This document shows, in pieces, positions 1-33,456 of a DNA stretch of 64,000 bases (the stretch's first letter is position 1; each line of letters starts with the position of its first letter). The notes under the pieces are model-generated. The model ran no database searches. It was not told the origin of the DNA and was given only the letters and a program-made list of their open reading frames with translations. Made by a program: the position numbers and the translations under genes. The stretch lies in the NCBI GenBank assembly GCA_964613185.1, contig CAZTIP010000001.1, positions 52,716 to 116,715 of the forward strand. The letters are read 5' to 3'. The DNA is from Candidatus Woesearchaeota archaeon. GTDB lineage: Archaea > Nanobdellota > Nanobdellia > Pacearchaeales > GW2011-AR1.

Positions 1-419
1 GGGCCAATACCTTTTGTTATTTTTGCAATTTCATATACTTCTGACGAAATAATTTCGGTATCGTGTGCAAATTCCAAACATTCATCAAAATTTTCATTCA
101 AATCACAATAATTTTCGCACAGTTCCTTAGTTTTGCAACTTCCAGGAGAAGTCCCTTCTTCTAAAAAAGGCAACACTTTTCTTGCCTCTTCAATATTTAT
201 TTTAGACATTAAATTATTTTTTTCAGCATAATCTAAACACACTCCAATATTTTCAACATCATCACAATAACTCTTGCATTCGCTTTGAGAATTGCAACCA
301 CCTAATTCTAAAACAGGATACTGAACTTCAGATAAATCTGCTAAAACATTTTCAGTTATTCCAAAAAAGATTCCAAATAATAAAAATAAAAAAAAGAGAA
401 ATTTAAATCTTACTTCCAT
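1..419 (-). CDS. Partial CDS running off the window start: secreted Cys-rich protein with two tandem Cys motifs. It begins with a signal peptide, MEVRFKFLFFLFLLFGIFFG, from an ATG at 417-419.
   Basis: Open frame translated by hand on the minus strand. Hydrophobic N-terminus. Two repeats of the pattern C-x5-C-x3-C-x7-C. The ATG overlaps the TGA of the upstream ORF (ATGA). Absent from the ORF track because it has no stop inside the window. Confidence 0.45.
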   Translation of the reverse strand, partial: MEVRFKFLFFLFLLFGIFFGITENVLADLSEVQYPVLELGGCNSQSECKSYCDDVENIGVCLDYAEKNNLMSKINIEEARKVLPFLEEGTSPGSCKTKELCENYCDLNENFDECLEFAHDTEIISSEVYEIAKITKGIG

Positions 420-1937: not shown

Positions 1938-2099
1938 ATGTTCAAGGAAGAAATTCTTTTAGGCATAACAGGAATTATAATTGGTGTTAGTATTTACTTC
2001 AAAACATCTTCAATACTTCCTTCGTTGGTTCCAACATTTCTAGGGATAGGGTTAATATTTTTCTATAAACGAGATGAATTGGTTAAGGCAGATTATTAA
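1938..2099 (+). CDS. Small 2-TM membrane protein (53 aa), a possible TctB-like accessory subunit.
   Basis: Hand-translated ATG..TAA ORF (MFKEEILLGITGIIIGVSIYFKTSSILPSLVPTFLGIGLIFFYKRDELVKADY) lying directly downstream of the TctA-like gene. It is below the ORF-track size cutoff. Confidence 0.3.
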   Translation: MFKEEILLGITGIIIGVSIYFKTSSILPSLVPTFLGIGLIFFYKRDELVKADY

Positions 2100-9907: not shown

Positions 9908-9988
9908 GCTCACATCGCATAATGGTATTGCACCAGGTTCGAACCCTGGGTCTTTCGAGACATCCCCGTTCGATTCGGGGTGTGAGCG
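9908..9988 (+). tRNA. tRNA-Ser (anticodon CGA), class II with a long variable arm. No CCA is encoded.
   Basis: Folded by hand. Acceptor GCTCACA/TGTGAGC with discriminator G. Anticodon stem CCAGG/CCTGG with loop TTCGAAC. Variable arm GTCTTTCGAGAC. T-arm CCCCG-TTCGATT-CGGGG. Confidence 0.85.
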
Positions 9989-15938: not shown

Positions 15939-16472
15939 ATGGTTTGTGCAAAATGCGATTATCAAGATTTAAAAGAATTAAAATTTTTTAACAAAACTCT
16001 TTGTCAAATTTGTGCAAAATTCGCTCCAAAAGAAAAAGAAAAATTAAATGAGTATCTCGATGAAAAAATAGATTGGAAACTTTTAGAAACTTTTAGGAAA
16101 AATAGTCAGGAATCTGGAAAATCAAAGAAAGAGGGAATGGGTAAAAAAGCAAGTGGAGGCGATTTGGTAACTCGTCCTCCAAAAGGTTATGAAGTCATCT
16201 CTGGAAAGTTAATTCCAAATAAGGATGCATCAAAAATACATTCACTATTCAGGACATTTATCAATAGGAACTATTCCCTAAACTCTTTAGCAAGAAATTT
16301 CACACTTTCTACAAATGGTGTAAAAAAAATTCTAACTAATCGGACCTATCTTGGAGAAATAAAATTCAATGGGAAAATCCATAAGGGAAATCATCAAAGC
16401 ATAATCTCTCCAGAAATTTTTTACGCAACTCAAAGGAAGTTGAAAGGTTATCTAAAACCAAGAAAAAAATAA
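15939..16472 (+). CDS. Serine-recombinase remnant. It has an N-terminal zinc ribbon and a large-serine-recombinase 'recombinase' domain but no resolvase catalytic domain.
   Basis: ...PPKGYEVISGKLIPNKDASKIHSLFRTFINRNYSLNSLARNFTLSTNGVKKILTNRTYLGEIKFNGKIHKGNHQSIISPEIFYATQRKL matches the recombinase-domain pattern (PxGY ... iL.N..Y.G ... H.piI..e.F..vQ). No S/R catalytic core is seen. Confidence 0.55.
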   Translation: MVCAKCDYQDLKELKFFNKTLCQICAKFAPKEKEKLNEYLDEKIDWKLLETFRKNSQESGKSKKEGMGKKASGGDLVTRPPKGYEVISGKLIPNKDASKIHSLFRTFINRNYSLNSLARNFTLSTNGVKKILTNRTYLGEIKFNGKIHKGNHQSIISPEIFYATQRKLKGYLKPRKK

Positions 16473-18667: not shown

Positions 18668-18799
18668 ATTATTTTTTAATTAAATTTTGATTTTCCGACA
18701 ACCGAATTAACGGAGATGGATTCATTGAGAGCCTGCGAACGATGAGTGAACCTTTTCAAAGGTACTTTCGAACCAAGTTCGAATTCTTCGACAACCGAA

Positions 18800-18883
18800 T
18801 GGGCGGAGAAGGATTCGAACCCTCGTAGGCACTAAGCCAATGCGCCCTTAACGCACCCCGTTTGACCACTCCGGCATCCGCCC
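18800..18883 (-). tRNA. tRNA-Leu, class II, copy A. The anticodon loop as written is TTAAGGG, which gives an unusual anticodon AAG.
   Basis: Hand fold of the minus strand. Acceptor GGGCGGA/TCCGCCC with discriminator A. Long variable arm GGCTTAGTGCC. T-arm GAGGG-TTCGAAT-CCTTC. The body is identical to the tRNA-Leu at 32986-33069 except for the 16-nt anticodon stem-loop. Confidence 0.75.
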
Positions 18884-18967
18884 GCGAATTTAATGAAAGG
18901 ATGTTGGACTCGAAGCGATTTCCCATCGCTACTTTCCGGCATCCGCCCGCGAATTTAATCAAACGAA

Positions 18968-30948: not shown

Positions 30949-31028
30949 ATAAAAAAATAGGATTCAAAGTTTATAAATAATTCGTAGGAAAAATACCTTA
31001 ATTATTTTAAGAAAAATAAATAAAAAAT

Positions 31029-31135
31029 AGACAGCTCCGTGTTTTCCCATCAAAGACAGTACAGACACGAACATAACAAGCTTAACTTCTGAGTTCGGAA
31101 CGGGATCAGGTGTAACCAAGTTATTATGGCCGTCT
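31029..31135 (-). rRNA. 5S rRNA, stand-alone. The ends are approximate, within a few nt.
   Basis: Minus strand ...CACCTGATCCCGTTCCGAACTCAGAAGTTAAGC... is the 5S loop B/helix III signature. The terminal helix is AGACGGC/GCTGTCT. A TTTATAAAT TATA box sits about 25 nt upstream. Confidence 0.8.
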
Positions 31136-31177
31136 AATTCTAAGACAAAATTTCAATTTATAAATCTTACTACTTGG

Positions 31178-32631: not shown

Positions 32632-32760
32632 CGTTAGCTTCTTTGAAGTGCACCCTTGTCCTTTAGGATACGCCCTGGCGGAACCGTTAGTTCAAATCCA
32701 ACGCTCTCGGCAGGATTCGTTGCGAGCCTGAGAGAAACGAGTTAGCTTCTTTGAAGCGCC
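32632..32760. repeat. ~107-bp tandem duplication containing a partial tRNA-Arg 3' end plus its trailer (CCGTTAGTTCAAATCCAACGCTCTCGGCAGGA, x2). It is a pseudo-tRNA/minihelix remnant.
   Basis: Direct repeats read from the sequence: TTAGCTTCTTTGAAG(T/C)GC and GAACCGTTAGTTCAAATCCAACGCTCTCGGCAGGA each occur twice. Confidence 0.6.
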
Positions 32761-32785
32761 TCTTGAACCGTTAGTTCAAATCCAA

Positions 32786-32861
32786 CGCTCTCGGCAGGAT
32801 TTGAACCTGCGACTTCTTCCTTAGGAGGGAAGCACTCTAATCCAGGCTGAGTTACGAGAGC
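32786..32861 (-). tRNA. tRNA-Arg (anticodon CCT).
   Basis: Hand fold. Acceptor GCTCTCG/CGAGAGC. D-stem ACTC/GAGT. Anticodon stem CTTCC/GGAAG with loop CTCCTAA. T-arm GCAGG-TTCAAAT-CCTGC. Confidence 0.85.
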
Positions 32862-32985
32862 AATAAAGTTCGAATTCTCCAACAACCGAATTAACGGAGC
32901 AGGATTCATCGAGGGCCTGCGAACGATGAGTGAACCTTTTTCAAAGGTACTCTCGAATCAAGTTCGAATTCTTCGACAACCGAAT

Positions 32986-33069
32986 GGGCGGAGAAGGATT
33001 CGAACCCTCGTAGGCACTAAGCCAACAGATCTTGAGTCTGCCCCGTTTGACCACTCCGGCATCCGCCCG
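32986..33069 (-). tRNA. tRNA-Leu (anticodon CAA), class II, copy B.
   Basis: Same body as 18800-18883. Anticodon stem-loop GCAGA-CTCAAGA-TCTGT. Confidence 0.85.
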
Positions 33070-33209
33070 CGAATTTAAATGAAGGATGTTGGACTCGAAG
33101 CGATTTCCCATCGCTACTTTCCGGCATCCACTCACGAATTCAAGAGGGGACATTGGACCTGAAGAGATTTTTTCTCGCTACTTTCTGGCATCCCCCAACA
33201 AAAACAAAA
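33070..33209. repeat. Two tandem ~60-nt tRNA-5'-like structured units upstream of tRNA-Leu. Minus strand: GGGGGATGCCAGAAAGTAGCGAGAAAAAATCTCTTCAGGTCCAATGTCCCC and GGATGCCGGAAAGTAGCGATGGGAAATCGCTTCGAGTCCAACATCC.
   Basis: The units share GGATGCC(A/G)GAAAGTAGCGA...TTC(A/G)(A/G)GTCCAA. The terminal stems (GGGGGA/TCCCCC versus GGATG/CATCC) and the internal hairpins (GAGA/TCTC versus AGCGAT/ATCGCT) differ in sequence but preserve pairing. Confidence 0.5.
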
Positions 33210-33280
33210 TGCGCGGACGGGGATTCGAACCCCGGTCATTTGGTTGGAAGCCAAAGATTCTGCCACTAAACTATCCACGC
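33210..33280 (-). tRNA. tRNA-Gly (anticodon TCC).
   Basis: Acceptor GCGTGGA/TCCGCGC with discriminator A. Anticodon stem TTTGG/CCAAA with loop CTTCCAA. T-arm CGGGG-TTCGAAT-CCCCG. Confidence 0.85.
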
Positions 33281-33456
33281 AGTTTTGCCTTTAGCGAAGA
33301 TTATTTTTGAAACGATTTCAAATCGAGTAACTAAACATCAACGCACAAAATAATCACCTAATTTAGGGTTTTAAAGTTTATGTTTTAGAGAAAAATAAAC
33401 AATAAGTATAAATACTAAAAAATCATTAAAATAATACTATTTGAAAGGAGGATACA

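Follow-up and report, generated by a model that had tools for sequence, protein, structure and literature searches.

Two loci in a 64,000-nt stretch of the genome of a DPANN, Woesearchaeota-like archaeon (contig CAZTIP010000001.1; the whole stretch is called the window below) carry short repeat units just upstream of tRNA-Leu genes, with the units and the neighboring tRNAs on the minus strand throughout. At locus B, two units of about 60 nt lie between tRNA-Gly(TCC) and tRNA-Leu(CAA), which is followed by tRNA-Arg(CCT); at locus A, a single unit lies between rpoD (RNA polymerase subunit D) and tRNA-Leu(AAG). These three units, reported in a preliminary description of the DNA, were recovered by a direct-repeat search, a 19-mer search and a covariance model, and they do lie in the leader or spacer of tRNA-Leu genes, as that description had it. 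Roughly even chances are given here to the reading that the units are lineage-specific noncoding tandem repeats produced by recombination at the 5' boundary of tRNA-Leu, and not independent tRNA-like genes; they are best seen as a variant of the known tRNA-fragment duplications at tRNA genes.

Repeat units and their relation to tRNA-Leu

Each unit is built of spacer or leader sequence, the first 10 to 14 nt of tRNA-Leu (up to D-stem position 14) and about 40 nt of unrelated sequence, which pairs back onto the copied tRNA start to form an irregular hairpin. Read along the minus strand, locus B runs tRNA-Gly, ATTTTGTTTTTGTT, unit 1 (GGGGGATGCCAGAAAGTAGCGAGAAAAAATCTCTTCAGGTCCAATGTCCCC), spacer, unit 2 (GGATGCCGGAAAGTAGCGATGGGAAATCGCTTCGAGTCCAACATCC), TTCATTTAAATTCGC and tRNA-Leu(CAA), and locus A runs rpoD stop codon, a spacer with GATTAAATTCGC, the unit and its following spacer as GGGCGGATGCCGGA-AAGTAGCGATGGGAAATCGCTTCGAGTCCAACATCC-TTTCATTAAATTCGC, and tRNA-Leu(AAG). 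The locus A unit opens with the full GGGCGGATGCCGGA, and the leader ATTAAATTCGC precedes both this unit and its tRNA; the 25 nt common to the two are 11 nt of leader plus tRNA positions 1 to 14. At locus B, 10 nt are common to both units and tRNA-Leu(CAA) (tRNA positions 5 to 14). The units had been described as starting with about the same 13 nt as tRNA-Leu; their derivation from the tRNA 5' end stands, and the shared length is to be corrected to 10 nt at locus B and 25 nt at locus A. The units vary most in their four first, acceptor-specific bases (GGGC), and the hairpin-forming GGATGCC is invariant.

The direct-repeat search returned a 60-nt pair (33084-33143 and 33148-33207; 73% identity, 64-nt spacing), a 32-nt repeat at locus A (94% identity, 65-nt spacing) and a 24- to 32-nt family with three members that includes the tRNA-Leu 5' end; Tandem Repeats Finder (TRF) called no array in the window, units 1 and 2 being only 73% identical. 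The 19-mer GGATGCCGGAAAGTAGCGA occurs three times in the window at one mismatch or fewer (0.00 expected), and the covariance model, made from nine copies, finds exactly three sites there (58.6 to 83.4 bits) and no others. A search for further copies, as the preliminary description had advised, was run on the window plus related loci (199 kb) and gave the three window sites and otherwise only tRNA-Leu 5' flanks of relatives; the covariance model found no match beyond known copies in the same sequence. A dispersed miniature inverted-repeat transposable element was rejected, since neither the rest of the window nor some 200 kb of related loci contain further parts of the unit. A metagenome scan with the pattern GGATGCCRGAARGTRGYGA yielded, among the 120 matches listed, a true unit only in L137 (L-numbers denote contigs or loci fetched from relatives); this pattern is too degenerate to inform, and an exact GTAGCGATGGGAAATCGCTTCGAGTCCAACATCC would be a more specific one. 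Independent assemblies (Logan, ENA, TARA, JGI) carry the units, which are thus not an assembly artifact.

The boundary of homology is sharp. At tRNA position 14/15, similarity drops from 100% identity (leader plus positions 1 to 14 at locus A) to nothing detectable, and the comparison of the 40-nt part with the rest of tRNA-Leu (positions 15 to 85) gave p values of 0.05 to 0.87 under two scoring schemes. The 3' part of the unit, earlier called T-loop-like, matches TTCGAATCC at eight of nine positions; the resemblance is not above chance (local-alignment shuffle test, p about 0.13 to 0.2), no T-stem closes the motif in any predicted fold (TTCGAG sits in an internal loop, and TCC pairs with GGA), and the label was dropped. 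The GAGA/TCTC stem of unit 1 was likewise rejected as a relic of the anticodon stem of tRNA-Leu(CAA) (p about 0.5).

Searches for a gene within the units were negative. ARAGORN, with or without intron mode, called only the five true tRNAs of the window and none on the units, and Rfam gave no match to the tRNA clan, mascRNA or any other family on them, either at gathering thresholds or at an E value of ≤10. Guide RNAs of the C/D-box and H/ACA types were set aside, as direct inspection showed no C (RUGAUGA), D (CUGA) or ACA box and no kink-turn, and no Rfam match to small nucleolar or other small RNAs was obtained at an E value of ≤10. The only open reading frames (ORFs) found were spurious ones overlapping tRNAs, which disposes of a small protein gene. 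A split or permuted tRNA gene was discarded because the copy stops at position 14 and an intact tRNA-Leu follows 8 to 15 nt downstream. The units are tRNA-derived in their first 10 to 14 nt only and are not a tRNA-like gene by any test applied.

Copy number among relatives

Contigs of relatives were fetched by the closest homologues of RpoD (92, 88, 87 and 65% identity) and of SecF (92, 83, 76 and 75%); among species-representative genomes, the best RpoD matches are Woesearchaeota/Nanoarchaeota metagenome-assembled genomes at ≤60% identity. The spacer between rpoD and tRNA-Leu(AAG) holds one copy of the unit in the window, two in L014 (RpoD, 92%; period, 58 nt; TRF, 2.2 copies with 85% matches), 1.5 in L019 (RpoD, 88%), where the distal copy is truncated exactly at the rpoD stop codon, one in L137 and none in L021 (RpoD, 87%), where 18 nt separate stop codon and tRNA. 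Between tRNA-Gly and tRNA-Leu(CAA), L149 and L150 have two units, the distal one badly decayed, and L168 (SecF, 76%) has none, with the two tRNAs 6 nt apart.

The repeat period is 64 to 65 nt in the window and 58 nt in L014 and L149. Spacers from a unit to the next unit or to the tRNA are alike in any one genome but not from genome to genome (TTCATTTAAATTCGC, TTCAAAAA/T or CACGCTTGTGAACTTGTG), the distance from hairpin to tRNA 5' end is 8, 13 or 15 nt, and the degraded copies are those at the distal end of the array (unit 1 of locus B in the window and unit 1 of L149). Constant period, polymorphic copy number (0 to 2) and spacers homogenized within a genome, all three seen here, are the marks of a tandem array that evolves by unequal crossover. 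By these sequence comparisons, the unit is young, limited to one sub-clade and to tRNA-Leu 5' flanks, and eroding at the distal edge of the array; its presence in 0 to 2 copies among close relatives and the decay of distal copies speak against an indispensable RNA gene.

Numerous short-read contigs stop exactly at a unit or at tRNA-Leu, the usual effect of a repeated module on assemblies. In two contigs, half of one locus is linked to half of the other by way of the tRNA-Leu module: L151 (2420-2995) reads Gly, three units, Leu(AAG) and L18e, and L137 (1-450) reads rpoD, unit, Leu(AAG) and Arg(CCT). These junctions may be assembly chimeras through the repeat or real recombinants.

Copies of tRNA ends at other genes

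The tRNA-Leu units belong to a wider pattern, seen in a scan of 33 tRNAs from the window and DPANN loci, in which not every case is independent of the others. For 14 of the 33, the 300 nt upstream contain a second copy of a 12-mer from the tRNA 5' end, and for 4 a 12-mer from the 3' end is repeated downstream; six control configurations (5' end downstream, 3' end upstream and all reverse complements) gave none among the 33. Copies of 5' ends thus lie upstream and copies of 3' ends downstream in 18 cases without exception. The 5' copies break off in or near the D-loop and the 3' copies in the T-loop, and the duplicated tRNA segment measures 8 to 18 nt, usually 14 to 18 (14 in the unit described above, or type 1; 11 to 16 in a type 2 insert; 14 at tRNA-Gly; 16 to 18 in the 3' copies of Arg and Leu; 8 and 12 in L006 and L008).

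At tRNA-Gly, a promoter-like block, AATAAACTTTAAAAC...TAAATTAGGT (AAACTTTAAAAC...TAAATTAGGT), stands directly upstream of the real gene in L166 and L168. In the window, L149 and L153, what follows this block at an unchanged distance is a partial copy of tRNA-Gly (its first 14 to 17 nt), and the intact gene comes 57 to 65 nt later; the site of the ancestral gene start is thus occupied by the partial copy. A hairpin shared by the tRNA-Leu unit and the insert upstream of tRNA-Gly (CGATGGGAAATCGCTTC versus CGATTTGAAATCGTTTC) was considered and not retained, its p value of 0.009 being uncorrected for 78 comparisons and not robust. In L166, tRNA-Gly(TCC) itself (about 37-130, minus strand) has an intron-like 16-nt insertion just 3' of the anticodon (TAATCTTTTGAAGAGA), and ARAGORN without intron mode misses this gene.

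The type 2 insert, with three hairpins (CTCACAATTCACWTTTGTGAG ... GCAAATTGTTCGGTCAAACG, core GCAAATTGTTCGGTCAAACG), is unrelated to the type 1 unit. It lies upstream of tRNA-Leu in two more distant relatives, L162 and L156, each time behind that tRNA's own 5' end; the two inserts are about 85% identical, and each holds an extra copy of a D-loop segment, GGTCAAACGG.

On the 3' side, tRNA-Arg(CCT) has its own last 16 to 17 nt copied about 50 to 90 nt downstream in the window, L150, L156 and L168. In the window, two perfect 37-nt direct repeats, each joining the final 16 nt of tRNA-Arg to 21 nt of trailer, flank a hairpin-containing insert of 47 nt; in L156 and L168, the copy runs straight into a T-run. 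A perfect copy of the last 17 nt of tRNA-Leu lies 1 nt before tRNA-Arg in L168. The tRNA-Leu trailer module of locus B, which contains a degenerate copy of the tRNA-Leu 3' end, has a second copy at locus A, and its motif is kept in L149, L162 and L008. This motif (TCGAAGARTTCGAA..CTT.ATTCG; 32960-32985 and 18775-18800 in the window) is common to the window and L008 (2046-2190) at an RpoD identity of 52%, and the L008 trailer has three hairpins with the same CGUAAG loop on different stems. A structured element may be conserved in the stretch from tRNA-Leu to the L18e gene.

Folding and covariation

Six of the eight copies folded share an irregular hairpin with a 5-bp outer stem (GGAUG/CAUCC), a 2x2 loop, GGA/UCC, an internal loop and a 6-bp hairpin closed by the loop GGGAA. 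In comparison with dinucleotide shuffles, good copies score z values of −1.8 to −3.4 (unit 2, −2.8) and decayed copies 0.07 to −1.6; the latter include unit 1 of the window (−15.2 kcal/mol; z = −1.6), with its inner hairpin in a shifted register, and unit 1 of L149 (z = 0.07), with a 3-nt deletion. The copy in L019 has another 3' strand (GAUAUCACGC), which nevertheless pairs with the tRNA-like 5' strand in a 9+3-bp stem (z = −3.35).

The inner hairpins of units 1 and 2 (GAGA/TCTC versus GCGAT/ATCGC) had been taken as compensatory to each other. They differ by a register shift of two columns, with four of six pairs kept by unit 1 in register, and two-sided compensatory changes appear only once relatives are added (GCGAT/ATCGC versus GTGAG/CTCAC). 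In the alignment of nine copies, 86% of cells are paired, versus 38 to 49% in slid controls, and both sides have changed at four of the six inner-stem pairs and at five pairs in all; the outer stem is nearly invariant, and unit 1 lengthens it through changes on both sides. The covariation score was equaled by 6 of 500 shuffles, a level that arises in 5 to 25% of unconstrained alignments in the tool's own trials. The two inner-stem types are paralogous and sit at different array positions in different genomes, so that the signal amounts to one or a few evolutionary events. With nine related copies, two paralogous hairpin types and this shuffle count, the phrase "classical signature of selection on RNA structure" in the preliminary description was too strong; in these models, hairpin formation is probably favored, and the statistics fall short of establishing selection.

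A function of the hairpin is the core of the main rival explanation, which we consider unlikely but worth serious attention. The units would be processing or insulator modules in a polycistronic pre-tRNA or in an rpoD-tRNA-L18e transcript, where they might guide or space cleavage by RNase P and tRNase Z, prevent tRNA misfolding or leave a protective 3' hairpin on rpoD mRNA. There is a precedent in the t-elements of Haloferax volcanii, tRNA-like structures upstream of 5S rRNA that are processed by tRNase Z and RNase P (PMC4326828). The fold shared by six of eight copies, the excess of paired cells, the two-sided changes and the long stem kept in L019 all favor it, as do unrelated hairpins in the same rpoD to tRNA-Leu spacer of distant relatives (L004, L007 and L011) and the persistence of the trailer motif down to 52% RpoD identity. 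Like t-elements, the units are short structured elements of tRNA ancestry in a precursor beside a stable RNA, and they might plausibly serve, or be removed, as a processing unit. However, t-elements abut the RNA whose end they define, whereas the units stand at a variable 8 to 15 nt from the tRNA, have no T-arm, are unseen by tRNA models (no tRNA or mascRNA-type match at an E value of ≤10) and are dispensable in close relatives: L021 and every more distant relative have none at the orthologous site, and the units vary in copy number and decay at the distal end of the array. Mean column identity of the units is 83%, by eye no higher than that of the adjoining intergenic DNA.

Hairpin potential and inner-stem covariation would also suit a stable small RNA with a function of its own, either tRNA derived or a guide. 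This is very improbable, given the lack of any Rfam match at an E value of ≤10, the lack of guide RNA boxes and kink-turn on inspection, the absence of a promoter of its own at the right distance (GAGTCC stands about 26 nt upstream of tRNA-Leu(CAA)), a total of three copies per 64 kb that all abut tRNA-Leu, and the loss of the units in close relatives.

Proposed transcription and fate of the repeats

A TATA-like TTGAAATAA lies within the last rpoD codons, 20 to 28 nt upstream of the first G of the locus A unit (distances counted by hand), and L021, without a unit, has an equivalent element at the same distance from the tRNA itself. From this placement, the locus A unit is most likely the first part of pre-tRNA-Leu or of an rpoD read-through transcript. 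No TATA-like element is present about 26 nt upstream of tRNA-Leu(CAA), for which reason the locus B units are probably internal spacers of a Gly-Leu-Arg precursor. A promoter within the unit spacer was examined and rejected, as TTTAAAT at −11 to −5 of tRNA-Leu(CAA) is not kept in relatives (TTCAAAAA or CACGCTTGTGAACTTGTG).

We propose that the repeats are transcribed within pre-tRNA. Transcription would start at the promoter-like TATA element at the end of rpoD, or arrive by read-through, at locus A, and would start at the tRNA-Gly promoter at locus B, yielding a precursor of Gly, unit 1, unit 2, Leu, trailer and Arg. Each repeat would fold alone into a hairpin that sequesters the duplicated acceptor-strand sequence, and would be removed with the leader or spacer in normal 5' and 3' tRNA processing and then degraded. 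If left unpaired, the decoy of the acceptor 5' strand would be a competitor of the genuine strand, and for this reason the hairpin would be retained; distal copies, mattering least, would decay.

When the whole locus B precursor is folded thermodynamically, each of the two units closes its own hairpin and tRNA-Leu adopts the correct cloverleaf. At locus A, where the unit copies the acceptor 5' strand perfectly, this copy is predicted to compete for the 3' strand of the tRNA; predicted decoy pairing is 0.65 with the native 40-nt sequence, versus 0.97 in shuffles, and only 0.7% of 300 shuffles are as low. The variable GGGC, the invariant GGATGCC and the lowered decoy pairing fit, in this model, a hairpin that neutralizes a harmful decoy.

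Excision of one repeat period in the manner of an intron, giving a leaderless mature tRNA without RNase P as in Nanoarchaeum, is extremely unlikely. TATA blocks do stand about 24 to 28 nt upstream of the first partial copy for tRNA-Gly and tRNA-Leu(AAG) (counted by hand), as for leaderless tRNAs, and removal of exactly one period would restore an intact tRNA. The folds, however, contain no bulge-helix-bulge (instead of two bulges of 3 nt separated by 4 bp, they have internal loops of 2x2 and about 4x6), splicing is unnecessary with the uninterrupted tRNA present, and tRNAs internal to the cluster, such as the tRNA-Leu behind tRNA-Gly in L168, need an endonucleolytic 5' activity anyway.

Origin of the units

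Scars at the tRNA-Leu 5' region, one of the origins offered in the preliminary description, fit the sharp boundary at position 14/15 and the wider pattern of tRNA-end copies. An insertion-type event at this position would have regenerated the intact gene downstream and left the old start as a partial copy; it could have been an integrase-like insertion with target duplication, the insert being later cut back to a minimal scar, or else a tandem duplication across the gene boundary. Copy number would then have been altered by unequal crossover or slippage between direct repeats of 20 to 25 nt, and the unit would have spread to both loci by gene conversion, which is suggested because the two tRNA-Leu modules are identical outside the anticodon arm and in their flanks. 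Trimmed insertion and boundary-spanning duplication both predict the observed orientation rule. The sharp boundary and the endpoints in the D-loop and T-loop bring the units closer to an integrase-type duplication of an attachment (att) site than to a decayed tandem duplication, and a direct repeat of the terminal part of the tRNA does lie beside the intact gene, as in att scars (25 nt, 14 of them in the tRNA, at locus A; 10 nt at locus B). The further colinear tRNA segments in type 2 and 3' elements fit a boundary-spanning duplication and speak against att-type insertion.

Several observations weigh against an origin as recombination scars. An integrase gene, a matching attP and an element remnant were not found, and only about 40 nt, without a genuine ORF, lie between the repeats, far below the 9 to 23 kb of archaeal tRNA-integrated elements (PMC9897764). 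Scans of IMG/VR viral contigs with the 5' part of the unit, its 3' part and the hairpin gave only chance matches in unrelated sequence. The decoy pairing still predicted at locus A (0.65) is substantial. Two inner-stem pairs have changed on both sides without intermediates (CG to UA, 4:3; GC to UA, 3:3), trailer hairpins change compensatorily too (CCTTT/AAAGG versus CCTCT/AGAGG), and such changes may reflect a positive function and not only damage limitation. The 3' copies of tRNA-Arg mostly track lineage-specific acceptor-stem changes (window, L156 and L168), which is not expected of neutral scars unless they were homogenized by gene conversion.

The units might instead be tandem duplicates of whole or nearly whole tRNA-Leu genes that arose by slippage or unequal crossover and then decayed, the hairpin being a relic of the anticodon or variable arm and TTCGAGTCC one of the T-loop; we regard this as improbable. 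The period of 58 to 65 nt is shorter than a tRNA plus spacer but of that order, the type 2 unit of L162 holds a further stretch colinear with tRNA-Leu (GGTCAAACGG, D-loop; p = 0.0015), the T-stem 5' strand accompanies the 3' end in the elements that follow tRNA-Arg and tRNA-Leu in L156 and L168, and DPANN genomes are deletion-prone, with L019 showing a microhomology deletion into a unit. Against this stands the 40-nt part, unlike positions 15 to 85 of tRNA-Leu, next to 25 nt that are identical, a decay boundary implausibly sharp without conversion or selection; moreover, decay at random would be expected to spare an upstream 3' end or a downstream 5' end now and then, and none occurs among the 33 tRNAs.

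A further proposal, which we hold to be quite doubtful, is a new, dedicated insertion mechanism in this group of DPANN archaea, acting at D-loop and T-loop boundaries of tRNA genes, in which nonautonomous mini-elements would be mobilized in trans by an integrase-like or a casposase/Cas1-like enzyme. It would duplicate 8 to 18 nt (usually 14 to 18) of the tRNA end and deposit a small hairpin cassette, and this single, as yet undescribed system would have produced the type 1 units, the inserts of type 2 and at tRNA-Gly, and the 3' elements of tRNA-Arg and tRNA-Leu alike. Casposon or Cas1-type integration takes place at tRNA gene ends and makes target-site duplications of 14 to 15 bp. The preference for tRNA gene ends and the usual 14 to 18 nt of duplicated tRNA resemble it; in contrast, the units have no terminal inverted repeats and no casposase or Cas1 gene, the inserts are tiny, and the repeats often reach into the leader or trailer (25 to 37 nt), which is not expected of a fixed stagger.

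Split tRNA genes consist of a full half up to the anticodon loop plus a complementary joining sequence, without an intact gene. Split and permuted tRNA genes reportedly occur in Nanoarchaeum, Caldivirga and Thermofilum, in work ascribed to Randau in 2005, Fujishima in 2009 and Chan in 2011. The host here is in the same broad DPANN/Nanoarchaeota grouping and likewise has tRNA pieces apart from the rest of the gene, but the units copy only 10 to 14 nt and an intact tRNA follows at once. Minisatellites, shaped by unequal crossover and concerted evolution, share the constant period (58 or 64 to 65 nt), polymorphic copy number, homogenized spacers and degenerate edge copies; unlike in them, the last partial repeat is the start of a functional tRNA gene, so that the gene both anchors and constrains the array. 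In archaeal tRNA-integrated elements such as PYG1 of Pyrococcus yayanosii, 9 to 23 kb of element DNA with an integrase lies between partial tRNA copies at attL and attR (PMC9897764). The units agree with such att scars in having one intact and one partial tRNA copy in direct orientation, the latter identical to the local tRNA, and in a repeat edge inside the tRNA (D-stem/loop for 5' copies, T-loop for 3' copies) with a sharp identity boundary. They differ in enclosing 40 to 90 nt, with integrase and attP not found, and in a scar that is tandemly repeated one to two times, at two loci, on the promoter-side 5' end.

If the units are scars, tRNA genes in streamlined DPANN genomes would be recombination hot spots, where debris is trimmed to about 40 to 90 nt, then amplified and copied between isoacceptor genes. 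If they are functional, they would be the second archaeal case of tRNA-derived processing signals, after the Haloferax t-element, and the first reported in DPANN. Either way, the effect on present understanding is incremental. The repeats break short-read assemblies at essential operons, can yield chimeric joins (L151 and L137) and are open to misannotation as tRNA fragments, and the units also amount to a small natural experiment in a cell's tolerance for a decoy acceptor strand within pre-tRNA.

Features of the window and neighboring genes

Table 1. Positions of the repeat units, RNA genes and tRNA-end copies (window coordinates unless a contig is named)
Feature	Position	Strand	Remarks
Unit 1, array-distal	33141-33198	-	GGGGGATGCCAGAAAGTAGCGAGAAAAAATCTCTTCAGGTCCAATGTCCCC; covariance model, 58.6 bits; degenerate copy of tRNA-Leu 5' end, then hairpin
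Unit 2, tRNA-proximal	33077-33134	-	GGATGCCGGAAAGTAGCGATGGGAAATCGCTTCGAGTCCAACATCC, then spacer TTCATTTAAATTCGC; covariance model, 83.4 bits
Locus A unit	18892-18949	-	Between rpoD stop (18968) and tRNA-Leu(AAG); covariance model, 83.3 bits
tRNA-Gly(TCC)	33209-33281	-	ARAGORN; Rfam, 67.1 bits; first gene of the cluster
tRNA-Leu(CAA)	32985-33069	-	ARAGORN; Rfam tRNA, 55.2 bits, full alignment; intact; starts GGGCGGATGCCGGAGTGG
tRNA-Arg(CCT)	32785-32862	-	ARAGORN, Rfam
tRNA-Leu(AAG)	18800-18884	-	ARAGORN; Rfam, 47 bits
5S rRNA	31026-31137	-	Placed by ARAGORN/Rfam
Decayed copy of tRNA-Gly 5' end	33328-33344	-	GCGTTGATGTTTAGTTA; about 28 nt downstream of promoter-like block; intact tRNA-Gly 64 nt on
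Conserved promoter-like block	33368-33379	-	AAACTTTAAAAC; comparison of upstream regions
tRNA-Leu trailer module	32863-32984	-	ATTCGGTTGTCGAAGAATTCGAACTT, hairpin ACCTTT GAA AAAGGT, degenerate 3'-end copy, repeat of trailer start
Degenerate copy of tRNA-Leu 3' end	32895-32907	-	GAATCCTGCTCCG; inside trailer module
Copy of trailer module at locus A	about 18700-18799		Direct-repeat families D1 and D3; pattern with three matches in window
Perfect 37-nt direct repeats	32765-32801 and 32681-32717	-	84 nt apart; direct-repeat family D5, pattern search
Type 2 insert, L162	2233-2327		Upstream of tRNA-Leu(AAG); preceded by that tRNA's 5' end, GGGCGGATGCCGGAGC
Type 2 insert, L156	about 1956-2050	-	Upstream of tRNA-Leu(CAA); preceded by that tRNA's 5' end, GAGGAGATGCC

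The genes for L18e, L13 and S9 lie downstream of rpoD and locus A, and the tRNA cluster at 33 kb (locus B) is flanked by a CARDB protein gene and by SecF/SecD. By sequence comparison, tRNA-Leu(AAG) equals tRNA-Leu(CAA) outside the anticodon arm.

The rpoD-linked tRNA-Leu has an AAG anticodon (A34; anticodon loop, TTAAGGG) in the window and in L004 to L009, L011, L014, L019, L021, L137 and L162. Among Woesearchaeota/Nanoarchaeota species-representative loci with a tRNA-Leu after rpoD, seven of eight have AAG; the one exception, Pacearchaeota locus L010, has GAG. If A34 is conserved in this tRNA-Leu, decoding would call for either an archaeal wobble deaminase or the use of unmodified A34. Together with the orientation-consistent copies of tRNA ends, the A34 tRNA-Leu may deserve more attention than the units.

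Elsewhere in the window, ARAGORN called a tRNA-Ser(CGA) (9908-9988, plus strand) with a short D-arm and a hairpin variable arm, for which the Rfam tRNA model gave no match at the gathering threshold. A 177-aa protein (15939-16472, plus strand) has only a PF07508 "Recombinase" domain (32.5 bits), without the resolvase catalytic domain, and is kept at the same place downstream of the S9 gene in L014, L021 and L151.

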